Shown: piece after piece, positions 2,734 to 55,237 of the stretch
Numbering within the stretch: the stretch's first letter is position 1
Layout of the letters: each line of letters starts with the position of its first letter
Assembly (NCBI GenBank): GCA_951406725.2
Contig: OX597817.1
Span: 86,180,001-86,244,000 of the forward strand
Length of the DNA: 64,000 nucleotides
Source of the DNA: Octopus vulgaris
Taxonomy: Eukaryota
Reading direction: 5' to 3'
Position numbers and translations under genes: made by a program
The notes under the pieces: generated by a model
Seen by the model: the letters and a program-made list of their open reading frames with translations, nothing else
What the model was told of the DNA's origin: nothing
The model's database searches: none

Positions 2734-15049
<12,316 letters not shown>

Positions 15050-34760: not shown

Positions 34761-35894
34761 GTATGAAATTCTCGCTTTCCACAAGTGTTTTGAAGCATTT
34801 ATCTTAAATTTTGTAATCGTTCATTATTTTGCAATCAAACTGACAAATGCTTATATCTGATATCGACTTCTCTGTTACTCTTTCTTCAACATTATCTATT
34901 AAGTTTTCTCATTGCAGATCTGCCCCATCCCTAGCTGGCTTTGTGATGATTCCAGAGGGGATAAAAACAATGACCTTCCTTAATAAAATTATAATGGTTT
35001 TTATAATTTTAAATTTGTTCAACACTATGTGGAAGAGAGAAGAATAATATGGAAGCAAGCTCTATTTTGTCTTTTTATTAATAGAGTGAAAAGTTGGCAA
35101 GCTGGCAGCATCGTTGGTACATCAGACAAAGCGGCATTTTTCTCTGGATCTTTCTGAGTTCAAGGTTCACTTGCCTTTCAGTTTTTAGGGTTCGATAAAT
35201 ACCAAATGAGTACAACAATCGATATAATAAACTAATCCCTCTCCTTAAAATTGCTAGCCTTGTGCCAAAATTGGAACGAATCAATAAAGAGGGAAGGGAT
35301 TTCACTAATATTGTTTTATTATTCCTCCCAATTTCAACTTGAAAACTTTCTCATAATTAGGCAAGAATGACAGAAGTGCTCTAAAATATTCAGCTTGGCT
35401 TTTTCATTAGCTGAAAGGGCAAAGCTGAATACTTTAGGGCAAGTAAATTCCCGTCAGGGTCGAATTTACCTTTCGTCTCTGAAACTGACTAATTCAACTC
35501 GGATCAATTAAATTCGATTATACCCATGCCCTACAGAAGAGCCACGGCTCTTTGCCGACGTAAGACGTATATAATTGTAGTCATTTTAGTTATAAAACAT
35601 TGTAATATACTTTATTGATTTACGGTTTCCTTGTTCGTGCTGATGGTGACCATAAATTTGTAGACCTTAATCCTACACGATTGGGGAATTTTCTTTAATG
35701 CCATTTGTTAGACCATCAAATCAGTTTAACAGATATTATTTCATGTTACTTCGCATATTTTACGTAATCAAATACAAACTGAAGTATAATAAGGCTTTTT
35801 TGTAATTAATACTTCAAACTATCTGAATTAATTAATTCATATTTGAGAAAGTTCTGTTCAAGAACAGCGAAACTATTGAGTGCAAAACATTATG

Positions 35895-35934
35895 TGCGCA
35901 TGCGCAAGTGTGAACCTAGCGAAGTTATGGCGGC
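35895..35934 (+). promoter_or_regulatory. NRF1 palindrome plus YY1-like motif at the EEP-gene promoter
   Basis: Perfect TGCGCATGCGCA at 35895-35906, followed by ATGGCGGC at 35927-35934. Confidence 0.55.
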
Positions 35935-36112
35935 TCACCGTGCAGTGTTGTTACGCTTGTTGTTGTTGTTAGTATATATTCAGGTGTTTATTAATGGTTA
36001 GAGCAGAAAACAATAACTTTCCCTCTAACAATATGTTTTTAATAAATAATCATCGACATCGCATCTTTCTGGATTAATCAGCGGTCGCAATAAGTTCCTG
36101 ATCAATGTAAAC

Positions 36113-36271
36113 ATGGTGTATTATTTACATTATGCCATGTCGCGATTTTCCTTAACGATCCTAGTTCTGTCTGTTATATTCCATTGTACTTTGAGTTTGA
36201 AAGTTGCCACTTATAATCTATGGAACATAATGTTCAATTGGGAAGTTAGAAAAATGCGAGTGATTGAAATG
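36113..36271 (+). CDS. EEP gene exon 1 (signal peptide and first motif)
   Basis: MVYYLHYAMSRFSLTILVLSVIFHCTLSLKVATYNLWNIMFNWEVRKMRVIEM|gtgag. Confidence 0.82.
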
Positions 36272-39200
36272 GTGAGCAGTTTATTTCCTTTCTTAATTTT
36301 CATTTAATGTCTTGTTCTGTTAGTATTTTCTTTCAACAGCTTCGATGTATGAAAACCTGTGCGACTTTTACACATTAATATACCTGTTAAATGTGATTTT
36401 AATAATTTATTATTATTATTATTATAGATATTCTCATAAAATACATCTATTCCATTCAGCTTTTCCCCGAAAATTAGTCGGTTTCCTAACAAATATATAT
36501 ATATATATATATATAATACGATGGGATATATAATATATATATATATATATATAATACGATGGGATATATATATATATATATATATATAATATGGGGATAA
36601 ATTATCCATGCGGGTACCGTAAGACCTCTCAGGTATATTCCAGGTTCCGTAACCACATCAAGTAGTGAGAAACATAAGGGATCGCTTAGGGTGAGCAATC
36701 CCACTGTAATTCATCTGATGGGTAAATCCAGATTCGCTTCGCTGAATCATGGATATATTTTTTGGAATTTAAATCTACAACAATTGCAAGCATAATTACG
36801 CTTGAAGAAAAATTTGAAGCTGTACCAGTCTCTGTATTCTTTGTAATTGTTTTGTATATATATATATATATATATTGTTTTGAGTCGACTTGTTTTATTT
36901 TGAATCAAAATGTAAAGGAATCAGAAATATTCCCAAAAGGGGATCGAGTGGGCACTGTGCTATTCGCGCGCGCACACACCACACATACACACTAAAACAT
37001 TACTCATCTTGTTTCTTCAACAGGGTTAATTAGACCAAATCTCCAAGACTGCTTGTCCCAGAGCTCATGCCCCCAGATTTATTTTCTGTTAGGTTTACTT
37101 ATAAAACATACAATTATTTTCGGCAACGTTCATGCGAAACATCGCCTTATTTTCTTATGCGTGTTTGCGACAATATCATTTTCGAATAATGATCCCTTAT
37201 TTCGTATTTTAAAATATTTCATATTGTTTTTAGCATAAGACAGCCTGTAAGGAATCAAAAACGGATTGCTGAGCATTGCTTCGAGTTAAAACGACACCAA
37301 GTAACGAGATCCCAAAACATCTTGATGTTTGGGGATTTCATTTTGGTGTAATTTATAATAGAGACGAGAGTGTATTTTACTAAATCATTGAATATCAACA
37401 ATTACGAGAGTGGGCTGAAAGGCTCATAGGAGTGATGCTAGAGCTGTGAAATCTTATAGGCATTAATTTCAACTATTCTTATTAATAACTGAATTATTTC
37501 TTTCCTGGCAAACTGACACGCTGACGTGGTTGATACATTTAAGGATGATGCTCTAGCTTTATCAATAGTGCAAAAGTGGGTTGTTGAATTTAGGAGGGGA
37601 TGGGAAAGACATGAAGATGACCCAAGGTCTGGACGTCCTGCAACTGCCACCACTACCAAAGAAAACATTGATCACATTCACCACATGGTGATGGATGACA
37701 GGTGATTGACTATAAATCAAATAGCCAATGCTATTAGCATATCCTCTGAGAGAGCAGAGAATATTCTGCCCAATGAGCTTAGCATAATGAAGGTTTCTGT
37801 TTAGTCGGTGCCATTTAGTGGGGTCCTGATCAAAAGCACACCAGGCTGATCACATTACAGAAAAATCTGACATTGTTTGAAGCAGATCCAGCAGATTTCC
37901 TTGAAGGTTTCCTAACTCAGGATGAGTGTTGGCTTCATTACAGAGCCAGAGACAATTCATGCAGTGGAAACATCTCTCCTCATCTCGTCTGAAGAAGGCT
38001 AATGTTATTTCATCTGCAGGGAAGATGATGACCTCAGTTTTTTGGGATGCAAAAGGCATTGTGTTTATTGACTATCTTCAAAAGGACCACACCATCAATG
38101 GAGAGTACTATGCCAACTTGAAAGTTGTTGAGGCAGTTATAAAAGGCTATAAAGAACAAACATCTTAGAAATCTGACAAAAGGGGTCTTGTTTCATCAGG
38201 ACAATGCTCTAGCACACAAGTCCTTGGTTTCAATGGCTGCTGTGCATGCTGATCACTCTCCCTTATTCTCTTGATTTTGTCTCATCTGACTATCACCTGT
38301 TTCCCAACCTGAAAAAACACTTGACTGGAAACCAGTATTGCAGTGATGATGATGTAATATCTGCTATTGATGCCTTTTTTGACCAACGATGGAAGAAGTG
38401 TATGGATTACAAGGAGGACTTTGCTGAAAAGTATACCTCATTTGGTTACATTCCATGAGAGTATCTTGGGTCAGGTTATGAACTTTTTAGCTGACCCTCA
38501 TACAGCTGAAAACAATGTTTCTGCCAATTAACAAACCGCTAAGTTTTGCACCTTGCAGGACTGTAGTCAAATGTAATTGCATACTTGAGGTTCAAAGAGT
38601 CAACTTCTACATCAGGAGTATTCAATCTTTGTTCTAGAATTTAATGGAATTCTGTGAGAGACTAAATGAGGGAAATATTTGCTGATTCAGCCACAGTATG
38701 TTACAAACAAACTGGCAGCAGCATTATCAACTGTTTTACTGCAATTCTATATTTAAGAGATGAGGAATTATGTACATTATTTACATTTGATGGATATTTG
38801 GAATCTTGGGGTTAGTAGCCTGTGCTCTTAACCACTACGCCATATACCTGTGGGCATATGGCGTAGGAATGAGAACTCAGGTTTGAAATTTCCCCAAGAC
38901 ACCTGGAGGGTATATCAGCCGAAATGTTGTGTTAACAACAAACAAGATTTGGACAAATATCCATCAAATGTAAATAATGTTTTACTGCAAGTTTATATTT
39001 TTAAATATATAAATATGAAATGCATTTGATAATTAATCCTGCTAGTCATCAAGGTGATAATGTTATTTTGATTGATCTTAGTTAAGTATGTGACATTTAT
39101 GTAACTTTGTATTTTCAGCACCTCATTGATTATCCTGAAAGACTTACATCCTTCACTGCTTTTATTGTTTTACATACCATCTCCCTCTCATAATCATTTC

Positions 39201-42200
39201 TGCAACTGATCCTTTTGTCTTTTAAAATTAGCTCTTGCTTGTTTCATTTATCTGTTTCCTGTTTGACCATTATTATAATCTACAAGATCTGGAATGGTAT
39301 TTGTTATAGAATAGCTATATTAATAGTTGCATTCATTATATCAGATTAATGTATATAAAATGTTTAATGTAAAAATGTATATCAAAAACCTTCTCTTAAA
39401 CATTTTTTCAAAAAATTTTTACTTCAGATAGAAACTATTAATCCTGATGTGATAGCATTCCAGGAAGTTCGAATGGATTCTAGCAGTGTTAGAAGTCAGT
39501 TGTTAGAGCTGCAAGAGAAACTTATAGACTTCAACTGGATGGTTGTTCAACCTGCAAATGATGTACAGAAACCCAAGCACACCTATTGGAATGGATGGGA
39601 ACGAGAAGGTATTATGAGTTTGACAAAATAACAATATAGTTGTTGGGTTTGAGTATGAGTACAAGCTATAATATTTCTACACAGGCACACACACACACAC
39701 CGACATGCTCACAGCAATAGAGTATTCTTATCCATATACCTATCTGTATTCATATCTTACTTAAATCAGAAATTATTTTAAAATATTGAGACTATTTTCT
39801 AAAATATCTTGTGAGTTAGTTTGGCCTCTTCAACTTGAGTTCACTTGTTTTTCTTTTCTTTTTTCTTTTTATGATTAATCATGGGTAAGTGAAAATCAAG
39901 ATCAAGCAAACTTTTGCTTGATGTGTGGTTTCTCTCCATGCTAAGCTCATCTTTGGACATATATGAATGAATTAAATACTTTGAATCTGATGAAGACATA
40001 GATGAATAAATTAAATACTGGTGCTTTACCATTTCTGCAACTCTGCATCCTTTAACTAGTAATTTTTTTTTTATAATTCTTATCTTCATCATCATCCTTT
40101 TCCTACTGGAAGTCACTCATTAGTTTGTTAATTATGTATTCTTTCTGAAAGTTAAAATAGAGCACAAACTGTTTTGCAAAAAACATAATTGTATTGGCAA
40201 GCAGTGACATTTAATTTCATTAAGTATTTGAAATTATTCTTAATTAATTTTAGTATATCAAATTTGATTAATTGTTGTTTCTTAATTGCTAAATTCTACT
40301 ACTCTCATAATCCCTTTCTTTAAAAAAAAATATATATTTAGATTAGTAAGAGATTCACCCTTTTGATACTGACCTATCTGAGACTACCCTAGTTCTAAGA
40401 CACAAATTTCCTGTTTTAAAGTGAAATGAAAACCTTTCATCAAAATTTCATGCTATTTATGTTTCAAATTCCAGCAAAATGATGACAGTTATTTTACTAA
40501 ACTCTTCATTATTTTAACAATTAAGTGAAGCAAAGGAAGCATGTTTCAACAGAAATCTAATAACAGAAGGGTTAATATATTTCTTTATTTCTGCACTTTA
40601 AAAAAAATTTATGTAACATCTCTCAATTTTTATTTCTATTGGCAGGCATTGGTATTCTTAGCAAGCTACCAATACTTAAATCAACAACAATCAGTATTCC
40701 CTATATGAGTGGCCCCGATACAAATCAAAGGATTGCTCTTCATGCTATGATAGGTTATAGTGAAGACTCAGCTATTCATGTTCTGACTGTACATTTTTCA
40801 TATGACAGACAGCAACAGTGTAACAATGCAGCCAGAATATTGCATTACATCTCAGGTTAGTTTGCAAATCTTTTTATATTTTCTTCACAAAACTATTTGA
40901 ACAAGCTAAGTTGATAATTTCAGATATGTAAATTGACAATTTATATTATTTCTAAATGTAGAAATCATCATCAATATTTTAATATTCTCTTAACCATGCT
41001 TGCATTGATTGGATTATATAGTCCTGAATATATGCCTGAATAAAAACCTCAATATTCTCAACTGGAAAACTTTTGATGTTATAATATCTTATATATGTAT
41101 TAATCTGGTAAAAAAGATGGGATGATCATGGCTAGAATATGCTTGTTATGTCTTCCCGGTCTCAGTCAGGGTTTGTTTGGGATTTAACAAAATCATGAAA
41201 TTGTTTCTATTGCTATATAACAACCTTAATTAGCACATCAGTGTAAAAAGGCTAATTAAATAATATTGTGTATAATTTCCTGCTTTTATAAAAATATATT
41301 ATCAGTTATTTGAATTGTTCTTTTTCTAATTATCATCATTAATTTCACATCTATTCCATGTTGACTTGAATTGTAAAAAGCCTGTAATATCACACAACCC
41401 TTGTCTGATTATTCACAGACTCAAGGAAAGAAAAAGAAACAAAAAAAAAACATCTGTACATTTTCTGATAGTTAAAGAAACCCAAAGTGAATAATGATAT
41501 TCTTTTACTTGTTTCAGTCACTTGACTGAGGCCATGCTGGAGTACTGTCTTTAGTCGAACAAATTGACCCCAAGACTTATTCTTTTTTAAGCCTAGTACT
41601 TAATCTATTGACCTCTTTTGCCGAACTGCAAGTTTACAGGGACATAAACACACTAACATCAGTGTCAAGCGATGATGGATGGACAAACACCAACATACAT
41701 ATGACGAGCTTCTTTCAGTATCTGTCTACCAAATCCACTCACAAGGCTTTGGTTGGCCTGTGGATATAGTAGAAGTCACTGGCTACACAGCTTACTAGAA
41801 ATAGCAATCAAATCTTCCTTATATCATATTCTGTTGTCTTAAAAATGGCTTGACAAAAAAAAGATGGGTTAATGGTTGCACTTCATTTCATATTTGACCA
41901 GGACTGGACTCCAGTGTATTTCATCAGGGTTAACTTCAAAGATTACACTCAACTTTCTCACAGACAGGATCCCTAACAATAAATTTTGCTCATTTTTATC
42001 TTTCATTAAACCTACAAAAAACCATTATATGGAAGCTTGGTTAATTAAACAATACCTAATGTGTGATTTCTGTTCTGAAATAAGGTGGAGTAACAAAAAT
42101 GGTAGAGTTCTAACTAAATATCTTGTGGAAGTTTTGCTCCTGGATGTTCTGAGTTCAAGAAAAGAGGTTGACTTTTCCATCCGTCACATTTGGTCCTCTA

Positions 42201-45200
42201 CTGCAGTTAGTTAAACCAACATATCTATCCCTTATCCTTGTGTGCACAGAAAAATAAAATCAGTAATTTCTTGAAATAGGTGTAGATTGCAAGAATGCCA
42301 TTTAGCCTGTCTATCAATTTAATTACTGTGTAATTTATATTTATCTTGTTTTGTATACCAACAGAAAAAGAACTTGAAAATGTAGTACTTCTTGGTGACT
42401 TTAACACCTATCAAGACTTTGAATGGCCATTGGAAGTGTTCACAGATACAGAAATTCGGCCAGAAAATTCCTGTTTTGATATGGTTAGAGCTGATGCCAA
42501 AGGACCAAATACTATCCTTGCTGATGTTTGGAGTGTTCATGCAGCAGATAAATTGTCAGGATTTACTTTTAGTAATATGGTAAGAAACAATTTCATCTGT
42601 GTGGAAATAATACTGTTGTAGTCTCAACTTTGTATTCAAATATAAGAAACATTGATGTAAAGTGATAATGTGATGACTGGGAGAAAAAAAAATGCTGCTA
42701 CAATATGAAATATTCTGGTTATTAAATTATTGATTTACATCTTTTAATTTTGAAAAACTCACCTTGACATGTCTTCCACTTGTATATCAAAGAAAATTTT
42801 CTTTCCATCGCTCTCCATCCTTAATCCTAGAGTCAAGTTATGGTGGGTTTATAAATATGTATGAATTACTTTGGGAAGGTGTAACAGCTGCTATCTGTTT
42901 ATAAATCATCATTGATTTAACATTCATTTTTCCATGGGTTGAACAGAATTCCTTACAGAAGATTTTCTACATTTGGATGCCCTTCTTGTTACCAACTATT
43001 GCCTGTTTCCAAGCAAAGTAATATTTTCCTCATGGCTGAACATGCTTCCTTGGAAGATTGGACACAAATGATACTGCTTATTTGATGGTAACATATTTAT
43101 AGCTATCGTGTGATATCAAGGCAAGGAGACACATGCATACAGGTTTGTGTGTATGTATATATATATATATGACAGGCTTATTTTGGTTTTGTCTATCAAA
43201 TCTACTCAAGACTTTGTTTGACCTTGTGCTATAGCAGAAGGCACTTGCCTAGAAAGCCACATGGTTGGGAAATAACAGCTATGCTTCAAGCTTACATTTG
43301 TCTACTTGTATATTTTCTTTTTGTACATATAGAACTACATTTTCCAACTTAAAACAGTAGACTGTTGTTTCTAGCAAGTACAGAGACTGCAAAATCTGTC
43401 CATTGTTTACCTGAAGTAACCTTACTTGTTATAGTCTCAGATCAGTCATAATTGAACAATAAAAAAAAACTAAGATGAAAGATATTACAGTTGTGGCAAT
43501 TCTGTTTGTATATCAGGTAGTATGTAATTAACTTTTCAATATAACCTTTCTCTCAAGGCACTAACACTCTGTCGAGTATGCACACTGACATTACACATCC
43601 ATCGGAGCATGCTGGCTTCATTCCTTGCGAGCTTACGCATGTCCACAGCAGTCACGGCCCATGTTTCACTGCCATGTAGCATGGCTGTTCATACACATGC
43701 ATCGTACAGTCTACCTTTTACTCTGAGCGAGAGGCCCTTTGTCTCCAGCACCCATTACACTCTCGGAGTGGTTGGCGTTAGGAAGGGCATCCAGTTGTAG
43801 AAACTCTGCCAAATCAGATTGGAGTCTGGTGCAGCCATCTGGACCTCAGTCAAATCGTCCAACCCATGCTAGCATGGAAAGCGGACGTTAAACGATGATG
43901 ATGATGATGAATCAATAAAAATATATTAATATAGTTACAAGGATTAATATAATTATAATGTTCAATATAACCTTCAGATAGTAGAGTGTAATCTGTGATA
44001 TTTGGTTGAGTAGGTTGAGCAACCATGTGTTAGATAAGTGTCATCTAGTGATTGATCCAACAGAGGAAGAGGTGAATTTATTTCAGAGGTAGTTTTTCTT
44101 TTCTTTTTCAGCCACATGTATACATGATCACATAAATATCACTATAACACACCATTGCTACTAAACAGGACTACCTGCTCCTAGGAGTCATTTGATGTGT
44201 AAAAGAGGATAAATATGGCTATATCAGCAAGAGTACCTTACAAGTAACTCTTCTACACATATATAAATTACAATCCTTAATATATATATATCTTTCATCA
44301 TCATTATTTAACGTTCACTTTTCATGCTGGCATGGGTTGAATGGTTTGACTGAAGACTGGCAAGCCAGAAGGCTGTACCAGGCTCCAATCTGATCTGCCA
44401 AGGTTTCTACAGCTGGATGCCCTTCCTAATGCCAACCACAAGAGTGTAGTGGGTGCTTTTTACGTGTCACCAGCACAAGGGCAAGTCAGGCGTACTGGCA
44501 TTGACCATGCTTCAATGGTGTTTTTTACGTGCCACCAATTTGCAGGTGTGACTGTAGTTGAGAAATTTACTTTGAAACATGTGGTTTCAACTTCAGTTAT
44601 ACTGTGCTGCATCATGGGTGAGTGTCTTCTATTATAGTATCAGTTTGAGCAAGCCTTGTGAGTGGTTTTGGTAGAAAGAAACTGAAAGAAGCCTGCTGTG
44701 TGTGTGTATATATATATACAGGGTGGGCCAAAATTAGTGCCCTAACTTGAGTTTTTGAAAATCCAACGATTTCATAGATGCTGACCGAGGAAGCTTCTTA
44801 TGTTTGTCATAATGAGGTGCTCCATCTTGCACAAAAATTTTGGAATGACGGTATCAAAAATACAGCCAGATGATGTTTCCACACAACAGGTAACAATCAT
44901 CATTCATCGTCTCTTGTGTGAATAGGGAATGCACAAATTCCTGAAGACAATATTGCCACCCAATGACAAGAGAAGGTGAATTAATGTGCTATTCCCAAAC
45001 CACTTCAGGGTCATCTTCTGAATAATAGAAGCAGTTATGACGATTGATGTGACCAGAAACATCAGAGAAAATGAGTTGGTCAAAAAATTTGGAATCTCTG
45101 GCTTCTGCCAGCATTCTCTCACAAAATTTGACACATTGAATAATCAATTACATATAGAAATAACAGAATGCATCAAGAAACTACAAAAGTAACAGACATA

Positions 45201-47825
45201 TAATTGGGGCACTAATTTTGATCCACCTTTGTGTGTGTGTGTGTGTATTAATGTCTTCTTGTCTTTACATCAGGCAAGTAAACAAGTGTCATATATATTG
45301 TTTGTTTCTTATCTTCCATAAATTTGATCACAGGCAAAAATATGATCTTCACTGGAATCAGGTGGGAGTTGGCAACAGGAAAGGCATGACCTATGCAAGG
45401 ATGGAAATGTGGATGTTAAAAAAAGATATTAGGAGAAGTTTCAGGTGTGGAAACAAGGATTAGAATTGAAGGGCCTCAGAGTCAATCTAGCTAAAACCAA
45501 AGTCGTAATCAGTAGGAAGGTAGACAAATCACAAACGCCTTCAGGTAGATGGCCCTGCTCGATCTGTAGAAAAGGTGTAGGTAGAAACTCTATAAGATAC
45601 ACCAAGTGTAAGCTATGGACACATAAGAGGTGCAGCAATGTCAAAGGAAGGCTAACTAGGAAGATGGTTTTTATATGTGGCAGATGCTCAGGAACAATAA
45701 ACACTGAAAATGCTCTGAGACCAACTTCCGTCACTTTCCAGGGAGAAAAACTAGAAATAGTTGATAGTTTCCGTTACCTAGGTGACCAAGTCAGCAGCGG
45801 GGGCGGGTGTGCTGAAAGTGTAACTGCTAGAGTAAGAATAGCTTGGGCAAAGTTCAGAGAGCTCTTACCTCTGCTGGTGACAAAAGGCCTCTCGCACAGA
45901 GTGAAAGGCAGACTGTATGATGCGTGTGTACGAACAGCCATGCTACATGGCAGTGAAACATGGGCCGTGACTGCTGAGGATATGCGTAAGCTCGCAAGAA
46001 ATGAAGCCAATATGCTCCGATGGATATGTAATGTCAGTGTTCATAATCGACAGAGTGTAAGTACCTTGAGAGAAAAGCTGGACCTAAGAAGCATCAGTTG
46101 TGGTGTGCAAGAGAGACGTTTGCACTGGTATGGTCATGTGGCGAGAATGGATGAAGATAGTTGTGTGAAAAAGTGCCACACCCTAGCGGTTGAGGGAACC
46201 TGTGGAAGAGGCAGACCCAGGAAAACCTGGGACGAGGTGGTGAAGCACGACCTTCGAACTTTAGGTCTCACTGAGGAAATGACTAGAGACCGAGTCCTCT
46301 GGAAGTGTGCTGTGCGCGAGAAGACCCGGCAGGACAAGTGAGTCCATAACCCGTGGCCTTCTACTTGGGATGGAGCCAGCCTACGTATGCATACCTTCCT
46401 TCTTGGGACACAAAACTCTACTTGTGAAGACCTGTTGAGGCAAGTGAGGATCAGAATCGAAATCGATCAATGGAAATTGCAGATGTGTTACCAGTGCCGG
46501 TGGCATGTCGAAACTCTACTTGTGAAGACCCGTTGAGGCAAGTGAGGATCAGAATGGAAATCGATCAATGGAAATTGCAGATGTGTTACCAGTGCCGGTG
46601 GCATGTCGAAACTCTACTTGTGAAGACCCGTTGAGGCAAGTGAGGATCAGAATGGAAATCGATCAATGGAAATTGCAGATGTGTTACCAGTGCCGGTGGC
46701 ATGTAAGAGAACCTTCCGTTTTGCGACCGTTGCCAGCACCGCCCCGTTTTGTGTCCGTTCGTTGCCAGCCTCGCCTGGCCCTCGTGCCGGTGGCACATAA
46801 AAAGCACCATCCGTTCGTGGCACGTAAAAAGCACCCACTACACTCACGGAGTGGTTGGCGTTAGGAAGGGCATCCAGCCGTAGAAACACTGCCAGATTTG
46901 ACTGGGCCTGATGAAGCCTTCTGGCTTCACAGACCCCTGTAGAACCGTCCAACCCATGCTAGCATGGAAAACGGACGCTAAACGACGATGATGAATTATA
47001 TTTTTCAAAAGTAATTAAATGATGTTCGAGATGTTTTATTCTACTAATCTCATTTTGAGAGATTAAAGATTTTTCTAGGCCAAATATAATCTCTAAAGAT
47101 GAGGTTGATAGTACAAAAAAAAAATGTCAATTCATTTTGTCTCTGTATATTTTCAGCCAACTCCTGGTTATGAAAGTCGTCCGGATAGAATACTTGTTTC
47201 AAAGAGCTTCAAGATTTTATCATGTAATCTTCATGGCAATGGTAATTTTTATAAAAAGAAATACAAGACACTAATATTTTGGCATCGATTTCAGAGAGTA
47301 ATTAAAAGTGCATATGAAGCTTTTCAAGGTTTCTCTGGCTACAGTTGTACACAGGATTGTGGCCCACATGGTTCTTGTCGCTGTGGAGTATGCGTTAACA
47401 TTGGCAATCAGAAAGATTGCCTCCTAATAGACTGTTCAGAATGCAATTCCTTCATGTTTTTACTTTTTATTTTATTGACTCTGTTTGCTTGTTTATTATC
47501 ATCAGTTACTGTGCTGGCCCTCATATTATTTCTCTTTAGTCGAATATCAGTAAGAACATTTCACTGTCTCTACAGTGTAAAATTATATTTCAACACGAGA
47601 GCATATTCAAGGTTGCGGATACTCTACAGGTTTTTTCCATTTATAAAAGCACCGTTGCCTTTTCTTTTAGTTTGCATCGTTACAAATCTTGTTTTTTACA
47701 CAGTAATTACCTTCATTTTCTCAGGTACTTTGCAAACTATTTTTCGTGTCATGGCTGAAGAGTTTTATCCTTCAGACCACCTAATGATATCATCCCAGTT
47801 ATGGATACCAAACAAGGAGTCTTAG
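36113..47825 (+). CDS. Uncharacterised EEP-superfamily (endonuclease/exonuclease/phosphatase) membrane protein, about 477 aa; join(36113-36271,39428-39608,40646-40855,42365-42579,47157-47825)
   Basis: A hydrophobic N-terminus is followed by the EEP motifs in canonical order: KVATYNLWN, PDVIAFQEV, GIGILSKLP, LTVHFS, VLLGDFN, RPDRIL, YPSDH. Introns are GT-AG with compatible phases (0,1,1,0). The start could be ATG 36113 or 36137. Confidence 0.88.
37405..38500 (+). mobile_element. Degenerate mariner transposon
   Basis: TA target duplications, imperfect TIRs (CGAGAGTGGGCTGAAAGGCTCATA / TATGAACTTTTTAGCTGACCCTCA), and transposase fragments SAGKMMTSVFWDAKG, HQDNALAH and YSLDFVSSDYHLF. Confidence 0.88.
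38745..38982. mobile_element. Short palindromic non-autonomous Penelope-derived element
   Basis: Both ends match the pLTR of 25950-27176 in inverted orientation; central palindrome CTACGCCATAT...ATATGGCGTAG. Confidence 0.7.
39428..39608 (+). CDS. EEP gene exon 2
   Basis: cag|ATA...GAAG|gtatt; IETINPDVIAFQEVR...WNGWERE. Confidence 0.9.
40355..40575. mobile_element. piggyBac-like MITE (family B)
   Basis: CCCTTTTGATAC...CAGAAGGG-TTAA; inverted homologue of 1636-1886. Confidence 0.6.
40646..40855 (+). CDS. EEP gene exon 3
   Basis: cag|GC...TCAG|gttag; GIGILSKLPIL...HVLTVHFSYDRQQQC. Confidence 0.9.
41503..41780 (-). mobile_element. tRNA-derived SINE (family 1)
   Basis: Reverse complement of the 57059-57449 family; similar copies at 24370-24683 and 60428-60600. 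Confidence 0.7.
42365..42579 (+). CDS. EEP gene exon 4
   Basis: cag|AA...ATG|gtaag; NVVLLGDFNTY...LADVW...GFTFSNM. Confidence 0.9.
43549..43911. mobile_element. RTE insertion with an inverted 5' segment
   Basis: 43549-43743 is antisense ORF2 sequence (homologous to 45880-46075), joined directly to a sense 3' tail ending in (GAT)n. Confidence 0.8.
44296..44535 (-). mobile_element. RTE 3'-end fragment
   Basis: Reverse-oriented tail-family copy. Confidence 0.75.
44719..45231. mobile_element. Tc1/mariner-like non-autonomous element nested in a SINE microsatellite
   Basis: TIRs CAGGGTGGGCCAAAATTAGTGCCC / GGGCACTAATTTTGATCCACCTTTG; inserted after TA; SINE sequence resumes on the far side. Confidence 0.7.
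45431..46993 (+). mobile_element. Young 5'-truncated RTE-clade LINE (uninterrupted 298-aa ORF2 C-terminus at 45445-46341, plus 3'UTR)
   Basis: Motifs GLRVNLAKTK, FRYLG, MLHGSETW, RRLHWYGHV and GRGRPRKTW; (GAT)n tail. Confidence 0.92.
46413..46704 (+). repeat. Three near-identical 98-bp tandem repeats in the RTE 3'UTR
   Basis: Units start at 46413, 46511 and 46609 (AAACTCTACTTGTGAAGACC...GGCATGTCG). Confidence 0.92.
47157..47825 (+). CDS. EEP gene exon 5 (DRI motif, Cys-rich module, two TM segments, PSDH motif)
   Basis: cag|CCA...TAG; PTPGYESRPDRIL...CTQDCGPHGSCRCGVC...EFYPSDHLMI. Confidence 0.9.
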   Translation, partial: PTPGYESRPDRILVSKSFKILSCNLHGNGNFYKKKYKTLIFWHRFQRVIKSAYEAFQGFSGYSCTQDCGPHGSCRCGVCVNIGNQKDCLLIDCSECNSFMFLLFILLTLFACLLSSVTVLALILFLFSRISVRTFHCLYSVKLYFNTRAYSRLRILYRFFPFIKAPLPFLLVCIVTNLVFYTVITFIFSGTLQTIFRVMAEEFYPSDHLMISSQLWIPNKES

Positions 47826-50299
47826 TTACTCCCATGTGTGTGTGTTGCTTTCACATTTTATTTGAAAAGTAATAATAAAAAATTCTCATGGCTGTAAGGT
47901 TAAGTTCACTTTACAAACCACAGGATTTCCTGTTTGACCTGAATGTGTAACTTTCTTGGGCAAATAACATCTACCATAATTTCAGCTTGCCTAATACCTT
48001 GCTCATGGAATTCACGGAAGCCTATTGTGTATGGAGATATATATACACACACACACAGATAGTGTATATGTAGTTATCTACATACACACACAGATGAGTA
48101 GAAATAAGGGTTTCACCCTCAAACCTCATCACCACTACTTTTACTTCTTAGCTCCACCTTGATCATTCCCTTTCTCTTCTAAAATGCAAATAACCATGTA
48201 GCTCCTCTACAGCAAGAAACCTGCTCTGCTCTTGCTCCTCAACTCCTAGCATAAAGTGGCTGTTCATAGGGTTCACAAGTGTTGCAAGTTGCATGGCAGC
48301 CTCTTTAGTGATGATGGCACAGAAAAAAAAAAAGAAAAAGCACCCAGTATGTGCTAATGTTAGGAAAGGCCTCCAGACTTAGAAATCATGCCAAAGCAGA
48401 CACAATGGAGCACAATGCAGCCCTTAGGCCCATCAAATCCTGTAAATTCATTTAACCCATGCCCGCATGGAACATGGATGATAACACATATACACACAAT
48501 CTATTTGCTAATGTAAAACTCTGGTGAGAAAAACAAACCAGTGCTGCTGAATATAGATATCTGGTGGTATTTGCTCTATACTGAGTTGCAGACAATTCCT
48601 TGCTATCAGAAACACAGCAACCTAATGATCTGACTGTTGGAAAACCATAACCAACTATGCTAGTGCAATATAAAATACAATTTGTGAAGATTAAGTTACT
48701 TGCCTCCCTCTATATGTATTACTTTCACATGAAATTGAAAAATAACAAAAATATTCATACATGAAGTGTGGGGATTTTAGTTAGCTCCATGTTTATGTGT
48801 GTATATATTGATTTTATATTTTATTTGAATTTTTTTTTAAAAACCCTTATAGAAAGTATGGATTTTTTTAAGCATAGATAAAGAAAAAAATAAAATTTAA
48901 TCATGTTAACAGTGTATAGTTGAAACATTGTAATACAGTTGTTTGCTGTCAATGGCATATTTATTAAATAAAAAATATTAACAATTATATTTTCCTTCAG
49001 AGACAAAGATTGAACTTAAACCAAGTGGTTCTGTTAGAAAGAAATTCATTGGTGGTGATTGAATTTTCCTTGGTGAATTAGACAAAATACCACTTAGTAT
49101 ATTAGTTTTTCTTTCCTTTTACATTTTTAGTTCCCCTTTATCCCACCAGGATCAAATAAATTGACTATACCCTACCACCATGGGAAAATTATCTTGTCCT
49201 TAGTCAAGGTATATATGAAAATCCTCATGTCAGAAAATATACTGAAATAAGAATATTTTGACAAAGAAATATGGCTAAGATGACAGATGCTTTATGAAAG
49301 CAAAAATTACAAGTGGCAGATGCAAAAAGGGCCAAATTAAAAAAAAAACTTTATAGGAGACCCAAGATTTTTTTTTTAAATATACCTAGAAAAATTTGTG
49401 AAATATGGAATGTATTACCAAAAGCTACTGGAAAATATCAGTGTTCCAGACTTTAAATCTACTTTCGATTTTCAATACTCAAAGCTTAAGAGGCTTGAAT
49501 AACTCAACAATACCCAAAACTGAGCAATAACTACGCAGTAGTAACCCATCACCTCCTCAAGTAAGCTACAATAAGAAACAAAATATTCAAGGTTTACCAG
49601 TGCTGTCCATAAGTAAGGCACATAAAGCTCTGACTCCATCCAGTTGTGTACCATAGAGAATTGGTATAACTTACTATAGCAAGAAGCTAGAGCATGTTGG
49701 TGAGTTCAAATCATTCTGAATGCTTTCAGTTCCTGTCTGTGAAATCCACTCACAAGTGTCCCAGGGCTATAATACAAGTGGGACTGAGCCTGAAAACCAT
49801 GTGGCTGGGAAGCAAATTTCTTACCATAAAGCCATGCTTGTGCCTATTAAAATAGTTATTCTCTTGAGACAGATAATGTGAAATTTATATGAGAAGACTA
49901 TAGAAAGAGTTCTATGAAATCAACCAGTGGATATTGATTAAATCATGTTGGAAACAAAATAAGTTGAAATAAGAGCAAGACATTCTCACTAATGTAATCT
50001 ATCCAAGTGTATTCATTTGTTTTTATGCTAACATGGTTAAATGGCTATAATATTGAAGCTTTGTTTTGCAGCCAGATAGCCTTCATGTTGCTAACTCAAA
50101 CTTTGTTTTTCAGGTAAGGGATTTCTTATGTTTTTGAAGTGCAAAGTCAGCAGACTTGTTGACAGAAAATAACGTCACTGCTTGTGGCTCAGCTGTGATA
50201 TCATTTTCAGAGAAACACAACTGTAAATACATACATGATCATATATATATAGTTAAGTTAATTTTTTGGTGCAAAAAGCAAGGCCATGTAGTTATGTAC

Positions 50300-54286: not shown

Positions 54287-55237
54287 TCAGCTGGCTTTCT
54301 TATAAAATAATAGATATGCATTCTCATTAAGTGTCCGAGTTGACAACTCATACTGCATATCAACTTCAGTTACATTGTCATCATCAAATTTGTACCACTT
54401 TCCATTACTGTCCAGACAATAGCAAATGTAGTGACCACTGCTAGTGCCACAAGAGCTTAAATGAACACACATAGCATACAAATTGTATTTGTAAGTAGGA
54501 TCTACTGTATTGCAGCTACTCTTACTAGTTGATTTTAAGTTGAACACTATGTCTTTCAAGTCCAAACCCAAAAGAGTAATATTAACAGGGGTTGTTATCT
54601 TTTTAGCATTTTTAGTCTTTGAGTCAAATGTAAAGCGCAATAGCTGAATAATAAGGCATTCTGGAAGTTGGTGAAGAAGACAACGTCGATCAATGGTCTG
54701 TTTTTCTCGTATCATTCCATCACATGCCCCTGCATAGAAACGAGGAGTTGAAGTCCGAATACTATGAGGTGTCAAGGTGTCGTCTGTTTTGTTGCTGACA
54801 ATGGGAGACATATATGGAGCCATGTGAAATGCAGGAAGTGTCTGGATGTTTACACAAGGAGGGATGTATGATAGAGGAGACATTACAGAAGAGCTTACTG
54901 AAGGAGTTGAATGGTCAACAGGATTAACTTTAGTACACCGAGAACACACCTGACCAGAAAGTTGTTCTACACTACTAAAGATGGTGAAGCAATCTTCAAG
55001 ATATATATTAGATTCTGATAATGATTCTCCAAGTGGGATTGGTAAAACAGCAAATGTCTGTGGCTGAATTGATAGATGTCCTTTCCGGCTACAATTATAT
55101 GCTTCTAGTAACTGACCAGTGAAAAGGTTGTCTATGATGGAAGAATTTTCATTTTTGTAAGCGTACCAATCTAGATCAGATAAATGCTGAGCCAACTCTG
55201 CATAAGCTTCGTTATCAAAGCTATTTAGCTTGTCAAT
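54287..55237 (-). CDS. USP last exon
   Basis: tag|ATT GAC AAG...TGA; open frame of 316 codons carrying the His box. Confidence 0.92.
   Translation of the reverse strand: MDKLNSFDNEAYAELAQHLSDLDWYAYKNENSSIIDNLFTGQLLEAYNCSRKGHLSIQPQTFAVLPIPLGESLSESNIYLEDCFTIFSSVEQLSGQVCSRCTKVNPVDHSTPSVSSSVMSPLSYIPPCVNIQTLPAFHMAPYMSPIVSNKTDDTLTPHSIRTSTPRFYAGACDGMIREKQTIDRRCLLHQLPECLIIQLLRFTFDSKTKNAKKITTPVNITLLGLDLKDIVFNLKSTSKSSCNTVDPTYKYNLYAMCVHLSSCGTSSGHYICYCLDSNGKWYKFDDDNVTEVDMQYELSTRTLNENAYLLFYKKAS

Follow-up and report, generated by a model that had tools for sequence, protein, structure and literature searches.

A 64,000-nucleotide window of the Octopus vulgaris genome (assembly GCA_951406725.2, contig OX597817.1, positions 86,180,001 to 86,244,000 of the forward strand) was found to carry a gene for an EEP enzyme in which the putative catalytic histidine is split off from its partner aspartate by a long insert, comprising a cysteine-rich module and a predicted two-helix membrane hairpin. 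We regard this architecture, an EEP enzyme with a hairpin insert ahead of the catalytic histidine, as virtually certain. By profile, predicted fold and residues, the protein is a member of the EEP (DNase I-like) superfamily. It matched PF03372 with 50.4 bits against a cutoff of 24.5 (E 3e-13), 38/38 members of its family matched as well, and the EEP catalytic set of N, E, H, D-x-N, D and SDH was conserved. Judging from sequences and model, the protein might be a luminal or cell-surface, Mg2+-dependent phosphodiesterase of the phospholipase C type, which stands on a two-helix membrane stalk and cleaves lipid head groups; for this account as a whole the balance is about even.

Splice sites tested over 35500-49000 gave five exons separated by GT..AG introns (phases 0, 1, 1 and 0), which join into a single frame of 477 residues (Table 1). 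The spliced product was letter-identical to record P0001, an uncharacterised O. vulgaris protein. Transcript contigs were examined at exon 5 and its flanks; for the first three joins the evidence is the identity with record P0001. Contigs of 4/4 runs, from four studies, covered 47156-48025 gap-free with no differing letter, and their loose ends corresponded to the end of exon 4, i.e. to the exon 4-exon 5 join. Because the contigs show this join, the four runs, whose RNA nature is a guessed label only, derive from spliced transcripts. An earlier interpretation made from the letters of the window (the sequence-only reading) had taken 47157-47825 as one exon, and the contigs of all four runs indeed read unbroken through the insert.

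Table 1. Coding exons, motifs and predicted elements of the octopus EEP gene, with positions counted from the first letter of the window.
Feature	Position	Strand	Description
Exon 1	36113..36271	+	Residues 1-53: likely signal peptide, residues 1-28 (36113-36196, putative cleavage site); first EEP strand with N35 and W37
TYN	36209-36217	+	EEP motif in exon 1
Exon 2	39428..39608	+	QE motif 39461-39466; E66 at 39464-39466, predicted metal ligand
Exon 3	40646..40855	+	D138-x-N-x-R142 (40717-40731, D-K-switch-like); VHF 40789-40797; H163 40792-40794; invariant C172
Exon 4	42365..42579	+	GDFN 42394-42405 (D195, N197); invariant C220; TFSNM
Exon 5	47157..47825	+	Residues 256-477 and stop: D265, entire insert, terminal SDH strand
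RPDRI	47178-47192	+	D265 codon 47184..47186, predicted partner of the catalytic His
Stalk helix	47241..47324	+	Residues 284-311; invariant Y287 and R299
8-Cys module	47346..47444	+	Residues 319-351; likely disulfide-bonded; no fold match
Predicted membrane helix 1	47451..47537	+	Residues 354-382 (29 residues)
Basic loop, predicted cytosolic	47538..47654	+	Residues 383-421; Cys clusters in many relatives
Predicted membrane helix 2	47655..47720	+	Residues 422-443 (22 residues)
Short return helices	47721..47765	+	Residues 444-458; conserved E456-E457
PSDH and last strand	47769..47804	+	H463 at 47778-47780; strand of residues 465-471 closes the EEP sandwich in the model

The sequence-only reading had listed the EEP motifs TYN, QE, H, GDFN and RPDRI (D codon at 47184), and all of them were found as described. 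Its terminal YPSDH was present too, but the span that it gave, 47769-47780, covers PSDH only, and YPSDH occupies 47766-47780. Eight cysteines were counted in the module that it had placed at 47346-47444, and its two hydrophobic stretches of about 29 and 22 residues correspond to residues 354-382 and 422-443, with a basic loop between them that holds 8 K/R and zero D/E when read from the translation. The unusually wide gap from the aspartate to SDH was likewise borne out. D265 and H463 are 198 residues apart, as opposed to 34 residues for the Asp-His pair D238/H272 of human neutral sphingomyelinase 1 (nSMase1, hSMPD2) in the available text of PMC10682184; by motif order, D265 would be the equivalent of hSMPD2 D238. 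H463 is followed by 14 residues.

The last exon retrieved 38 longer proteins among 779 candidates, and the layout of the insert recurred in relatives at 29-63% identity. Since the hairpin-insert layout is repeated in these relatives and carried by transcript contigs, it is not the product of chance. Named relatives came from molluscs of four classes, the brachiopod Lingula, the annelids Owenia and Capitella, hemichordates, echinoderms and cnidarians, and were labelled uncharacterised, hypothetical or merely EEP-domain; further ones stood among unidentified eukaryotes, three with EukProt labels. No chordate, arthropod or nematode was seen among the named relatives, which is a weak negative from word-based searches.

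Conservation was counted in an alignment of 38 rows (A1), over the rows with a residue at the position in question. E66 was kept in 35/36, H163 in 36/37, D195 in 38/38, N197 in 36/38 and D265 in 38/38 rows. S461, D462 and H463 were each invariant (36/36), the rows with gaps there being an early-ending record and a divergent gene model, and no conserved substitute histidine was present ahead of the insert in A1 (H281 only 6/38). H463 is very probably catalytic. D138 and R142 were kept in 37/38 rows each, R68 in 35/36 and W37 in 29/31. In a set of 220 proteins that includes fragments and near-copies, the Cys motif was found in 122, and S/T-D-H followed downstream in 110 of these 122; of the other 12, nine stop no more than 112 residues past the motif, and three are unexplained. 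The sequence-only reading had asked for a test of whether PSDH and the membrane insert are conserved across invertebrates, and both were conserved, the two hydrophobic segments and the basic loop being kept across relatives. It should be further pointed out that two relatives carry an additional domain within the EEP core, placed in the loop region that follows GDFN: a thioredoxin domain in P0046 (residues 288-387, E 2e-22) and an SH3 domain in P0109 (residues 399-449, E 2e-9). These are either real fusions or chimeric assemblies.

AlphaFold2 run on A1 gave a model with a mean pLDDT (predicted local distance difference test) of 88.1 and a pTM (predicted template modelling score) of 0.84. It contains helices at residues 284-311, 353-389, 421-442, 444-451 and 455-458 and a last strand at 465-471. 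Foldseek and VIA searches with the model returned EEP chains. In a wide structure search, 38/38 chains at a Z of at least 14 had the EEP fold, the alignment ended at model residue 471-477, and the aligned EEP chains were covered to their own last strand; for 3g6s (Z 25.5, root mean square deviation 2.8, 237 aligned residues), model residues 26-473 lay on chain residues 1-261. Because the aligned ranges extend to model residue 471-477, the C-terminal strand with SDH would take its usual EEP place, and in the model it completes the four-layer sandwich, in agreement with the earlier proposal that the PSDH strand packs into the fold. A model of the insert alone had a pLDDT of 91.5; it gave 0 Foldseek matches, and the other structure search found nothing beyond generic helical hairpins (Z up to 8.7). 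Similarly, an Atlas search with the whole protein led to its own-family cluster, and one with the insert gave no usable match. The 8-Cys module presumably resembles integrin/tenascin EGF repeats, a likeness without Pfam or PDB support for a module that was barely tested.

Helix 1 was detected in 101/104 and helix 2 in 98/104 proteins at a hydropathy of at least 1.6. The loop between them was net positive in 89/89 proteins (740 K/R vs 141 D/E; 1/90 was dropped for want of the two segments), and its flanks were net acidic. An N-terminal hydrophobic segment was present in 47/50 insert-bearing proteins with a readable start, and in animals it is short and stands directly before strand 1. Because of the eight conserved cysteines, the invariant C172 and C220, the helices, the basic loop and this N-terminal segment, the catalytic body would lie in the lumen or outside the cell and the loop in the cytosol. 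A two-pass topology with a luminal active site is, on these sequence features and the model, quite probable. Close Cys pairs occur within 55/89 loops and could be palmitoylated.

These features suggest how the enzyme may be built. The signal peptide would direct the catalytic body into the endoplasmic reticulum (ER) lumen. After the strand of residues 274-281, the chain is predicted to run through the stalk helix and the Cys module into helix 1, to form the basic cytosolic loop and to return via helix 2, so that the insert in the penultimate EEP loop would form a disulfide-bonded pedestal with a two-helix hairpin. In the model, the chain then passes through two short helices, by which D462-H463 and the last strand come to lie in the sandwich again, beside D265, N35, E66, D195 and N197. 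The tail after helix 2 had a median of 33 residues and did not exceed 50 in 101/104 proteins. When the last helix lies no more than about 50 residues from the C-terminus, it has not yet left the ribosome at termination, and such terminal helices with translocated tails are inserted afterwards by the ER membrane protein complex (EMC), best if the tail is short and uncharged, according to the consulted sections of PMC10803268. With about 34 residues after helix 2, helix 2 and the His-bearing tail of the octopus protein would thus be inserted post-translationally, probably by EMC (compare the same sections of PMC10803268). Because His463 sits on the tail behind the last helix, the active site should close only after this insertion; the suggestion of the sequence-only reading that the site is completed only by correct membrane insertion would thereby gain a concrete mechanism. 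The octopus tail holds several acidic residues, and these may disfavour the EMC route. With His463 about 20 residues from the bilayer, the enzyme might finally cleave the phosphodiester of a luminal-leaflet lipid, e.g. a phosphosphingolipid or a lyso-lipid, which is the least certain step.

That a lipid head group is the substrate is an even call, which draws on sequence likeness and analogy. Among solved proteins of known activity, human nSMase1 gave the strongest sequence match to the wide profile (E 1e-9). N35/W37/E66/D138 aligned with hSMPD2 N15/W17/E49/D111, and R142 fell one residue off hSMPD2 K116 and on the Lys of the SmcL D..K motif. These hSMPD2 residues are functional in that enzyme (PMC10682184). 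Like SMPD2/Isc1, the octopus protein has the EEP fold (Z 23.6, root mean square deviation 3.1, 246 aligned residues), a matching N, W, E, D and H set and two membrane helices. In SMPD2, however, the active site faces the cytosol. Its helices are C-terminal (accessible part of PMC10682184; the aligned range ends at 284, after H272), whereas those of the octopus protein lie between D265 and H463, and the latter also begins with a signal-like sequence, contains a Cys module and has Arg at the K116 and W51 positions. With its helices preceding the His, the octopus protein is not an SMPD2/Isc1 member, but it may work alike. The Bacillus SMase has its membrane-binding hairpin (W284/F285) just before the catalytic His296, as stated in the part of PMC9710629 available to us, and the segment expanded by the octopus insert holds the same position. 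Bc-SMase and SmcL (Z 20.4-20.8) are comparable to the octopus protein in this pre-His segment, which binds the membrane in the bacterial enzymes, and in their D..K motif, which aligns with D138..R142. The Bc-SMase element is a short aromatic beta-hairpin of a soluble secreted enzyme, whereas the octopus insert is a stalk of about 175 residues with a Cys module and a helical hairpin predicted to span the membrane.

Several observations weigh against a luminal, lipid-cleaving enzyme of this kind. D138-x3-R142 is one residue shorter than the D-x4-K switch of nSMases and ends in Arg, and the lipid-contact residue W51 of hSMPD2 is lost to R68 here, although W17 is matched by W37. D-x-N-x-R occurred in 16/20 and N-x-W in 17/20 insert-free relatives; being common there, these motifs are not tied to the anchor. 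By structure, nSMase1 (8j2f, Z 23.6) tied with TDP2, PDE12 and CNOT6L, and it ranked below unassigned bacterial EEPs and mannosyl-6-phosphatase 4c1r (Z 24.8). The placement of His463 rests on aligned ranges and not on model coordinates. As for topology, sequons showed no excess on the side presumed to be luminal (65 found vs 113.5 expected in 52 proteins), the octopus protein has zero sequons, the charge bias around the N-terminal segment was weak (23/47), and the SH3 domain in the EEP core of the distant relative P0109 is of a usually cytosolic type. The stalk helix was not measurably amphipathic (1/38), a test that control helices also fail.

Four other explanations were considered, two of which keep the same topology. 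The main one, itself unlikely but the most serious of the four, proposes that the enzyme, in the ER or Golgi, edits a glycan or a glycosylphosphatidylinositol (GPI) anchor at a phosphodiester or phosphate (phosphocholine, phosphoethanolamine or mannose phosphate). The high structural rank of 4c1r suits it, many insert-free relatives have an N-terminal anchor and a long stem like Golgi enzymes, and one of these gave a sub-threshold MGAT4 C-terminal match. Within the EEP superfamily, Cwh43 has many membrane helices ahead of its EEP domain, and we know of no insert before SDH in the Cwh43/PGAP2IP group. That group, with GlcNAc-PDase clustering in it, uses EEP domains in GPI lipid remodelling or glycan zwitterion removal, and GlcNAc-PDase is an enzyme of the proposed kind (PMC10704324). 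PF23226 was matched weakly by 7/38 members (best E 1e-5), but the octopus protein reached only 16.4 bits, below the cutoff of 27, and with only 28 residues before strand 1 it has no multi-pass N-terminal domain as in Cwh43; by the profile score it is not a Cwh43/PGAP2IP member. Moreover, nSMase1 remains the best sequence match with known activity, and a rigid two-helix stalk near the site would fit a lipid better than a distal glycan. We find it rather improbable that the protein is an ecto-nuclease, nucleotide phosphodiesterase or phosphatase acting on soluble substrates, with the hairpin as a mere tether. CNOT6L and TDP2 were top Foldseek matches, extracellular nuclease models of NCBIfam matched weakly and far under cutoff, and hairpin-free forms exist. 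However, CNOT6L and TDP2 structures are merely abundant and only 14-20% identical, and a tether could as well be terminal, whereas insertion before the catalytic His from cnidarians to octopus suggests positioning.

The topology itself would be different if the hydrophobic segments were re-entrant or monotopic, or if the catalytic body were cytosolic as in nSMase1/Isc1, which we consider improbable to a greater degree. The relatives P0052, P0054 and P0069 hold about 30 hydrophobic residues with a central Arg, short for two spans, and neither the sequons nor the SH3 insertion of P0109 speaks for the lumen. Against this stand helices of 29 and 22 residues, the basic loop in 89/89 proteins, the eight conserved Cys with invariant C172/C220 and the short N-terminal segment before strand 1 in animals; the thioredoxin domain within the P0046 core also fits the lumen, in a record that is possibly chimeric. 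There is next to no chance that the insert arose from faulty annotation or is removed by splicing, and for the main form this is refuted. In O. bimaculoides, an annotated isoform X2 (P0184, 291 residues) departs from the frame at G284, where a donor-like GT stands at 47242 (47241-47247, inside exon 5), and the helices are missing from the Nematostella and Elysia crispata models. The whole of exon 5, however, is present in the contigs of 4/4 runs, the insert is conserved across phyla, and isoform X2 would lose the catalytic His as well. Use of the 47242 donor was not seen in the four contigs covering exon 5, and since contigs drop rare variants a minor short isoform could escape them; the last exon of isoform X2 was not found within the window. 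An isoform of the P0184 type would be secreted and lack both the helices and the catalytic His.

The size of the insert differs in grades among living relatives. A profile search over 1.84 billion representatives yielded 121 proteins at E 1e-30 or better, and the D-to-SDH distance was measurable in 152/217 proteins. It was at most 60 residues in 47 proteins, which have neither Cys module nor hydrophobic segment, and 61-130 in 12 (8 hydrophobic without Cys module, 4 with Cys module but no helix). In 93 proteins it exceeded 130, and 84 of them had the Cys module and at least two hydrophobic windows. The relatives thus span a plain loop of about 30 residues, a short hairpin, a Cys module, and a Cys module with a long hairpin. 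A short hydrophobic hairpin without Cys module was observed in P0052, P0054, P0069, P0087, P0094, P0115, P0171 and P0218 (D-to-His about 93-120 in those that were measured), and a Cys module without helices in P0085 and P0074; on sequence these are possible intermediates. The short-insert forms also start with the G..Y helix and close with EE.FPSDH. In P0096, D and His are 499 residues apart, nearly all of the extra length being in the presumed cytosolic loop. Because hairpin-free relatives retain the same catalytic set, the hairpin is an anchoring addition to a loop and lies outside the catalytic fold.

In a careful tree built on the core only, the insert-bearing proteins clustered (2 changes vs 13.8 when shuffled) and the animal proteins were held together (95/84). 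A single origin of the insert, in one clade, is weakly supported: the core-only tree gave it 75/76, with two insert-free rows inside, and a quick tree, which also used the terminal motif, gave 96 SH-aLRT. The helix-less Nematostella and Elysia crispata records nested among full forms in the quick tree and may be gene-model errors.

The sequence-only reading had also claimed that no described family shows this topology. The helices of steroid sulfatase interrupt its catalytic domain, as they do here. Its catalytic head is luminal and is carried by a pair of antiparallel hydrophobic helices, and its active site opens close to the membrane (PMC4591525), so the claim stood for EEP enzymes, of which no such example was found, but a two-helix stalk as such is known. 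The likeness is one of analogy only: the stalk is alike, whereas fold and chemistry are unrelated, and steroid sulfatase was absent from the structural matches of the octopus model. Searches of the open literature by locus tags, topology and EEP with membrane, with supplements and subscription papers outside, retrieved no EEP family with this layout. The hairpin-split EEP architecture thus appears to be conserved and undescribed, its design principle being known on another fold, and the superfamily gains an architecture in which a predicted membrane hairpin separates the two members of the Asp-His pair.

Sphingolipids lie mostly in the outward-facing leaflet. If the account is true, an outward-facing nSMase-type enzyme would meet them there and could supply a missing step in the turnover of lipids or glycans in invertebrates. 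Ceramide aminoethylphosphonate is abundant in molluscs and cnidarians, and a literature search found no paper on an enzyme for it. A bolder version would make the octopus protein the founding member of an old eukaryotic, outward-facing nSMase-like family, perhaps a phospholipase C for ceramide aminoethylphosphonate or related lipids, with its His delivered by an EMC-dependent tail and its activity reporting insertion; we put it forward as a speculation that is unlikely to hold in full. With its catalytic His carried by the tail that follows the terminal membrane helix, the enzyme could, if the account is true, report the insertion of terminal helices by EMC through a gain of signal.

Other features of the window lie in the introns and beyond the gene. 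Intron 1 contains a broken mariner-type transposase remnant at about 37450-38490 (+; PF01359, E 6e-16). In intron 4, the stretch 45433-46704 (+) holds an open frame of 302 codons, which gave only a weak PHD match in Pfam and is presumably akin to a LINE reverse transcriptase in its 3' end; after it, a 98-bp unit is repeated three times at 98% (46413-46704). A WD40-repeat exon of another gene was located at about 7990-8130 (+; PF00400, E 3e-8), and a ubiquitin C-terminal hydrolase exon at 54287-55237 (-; PF00443, E 6e-32) is convergent with the EEP gene.

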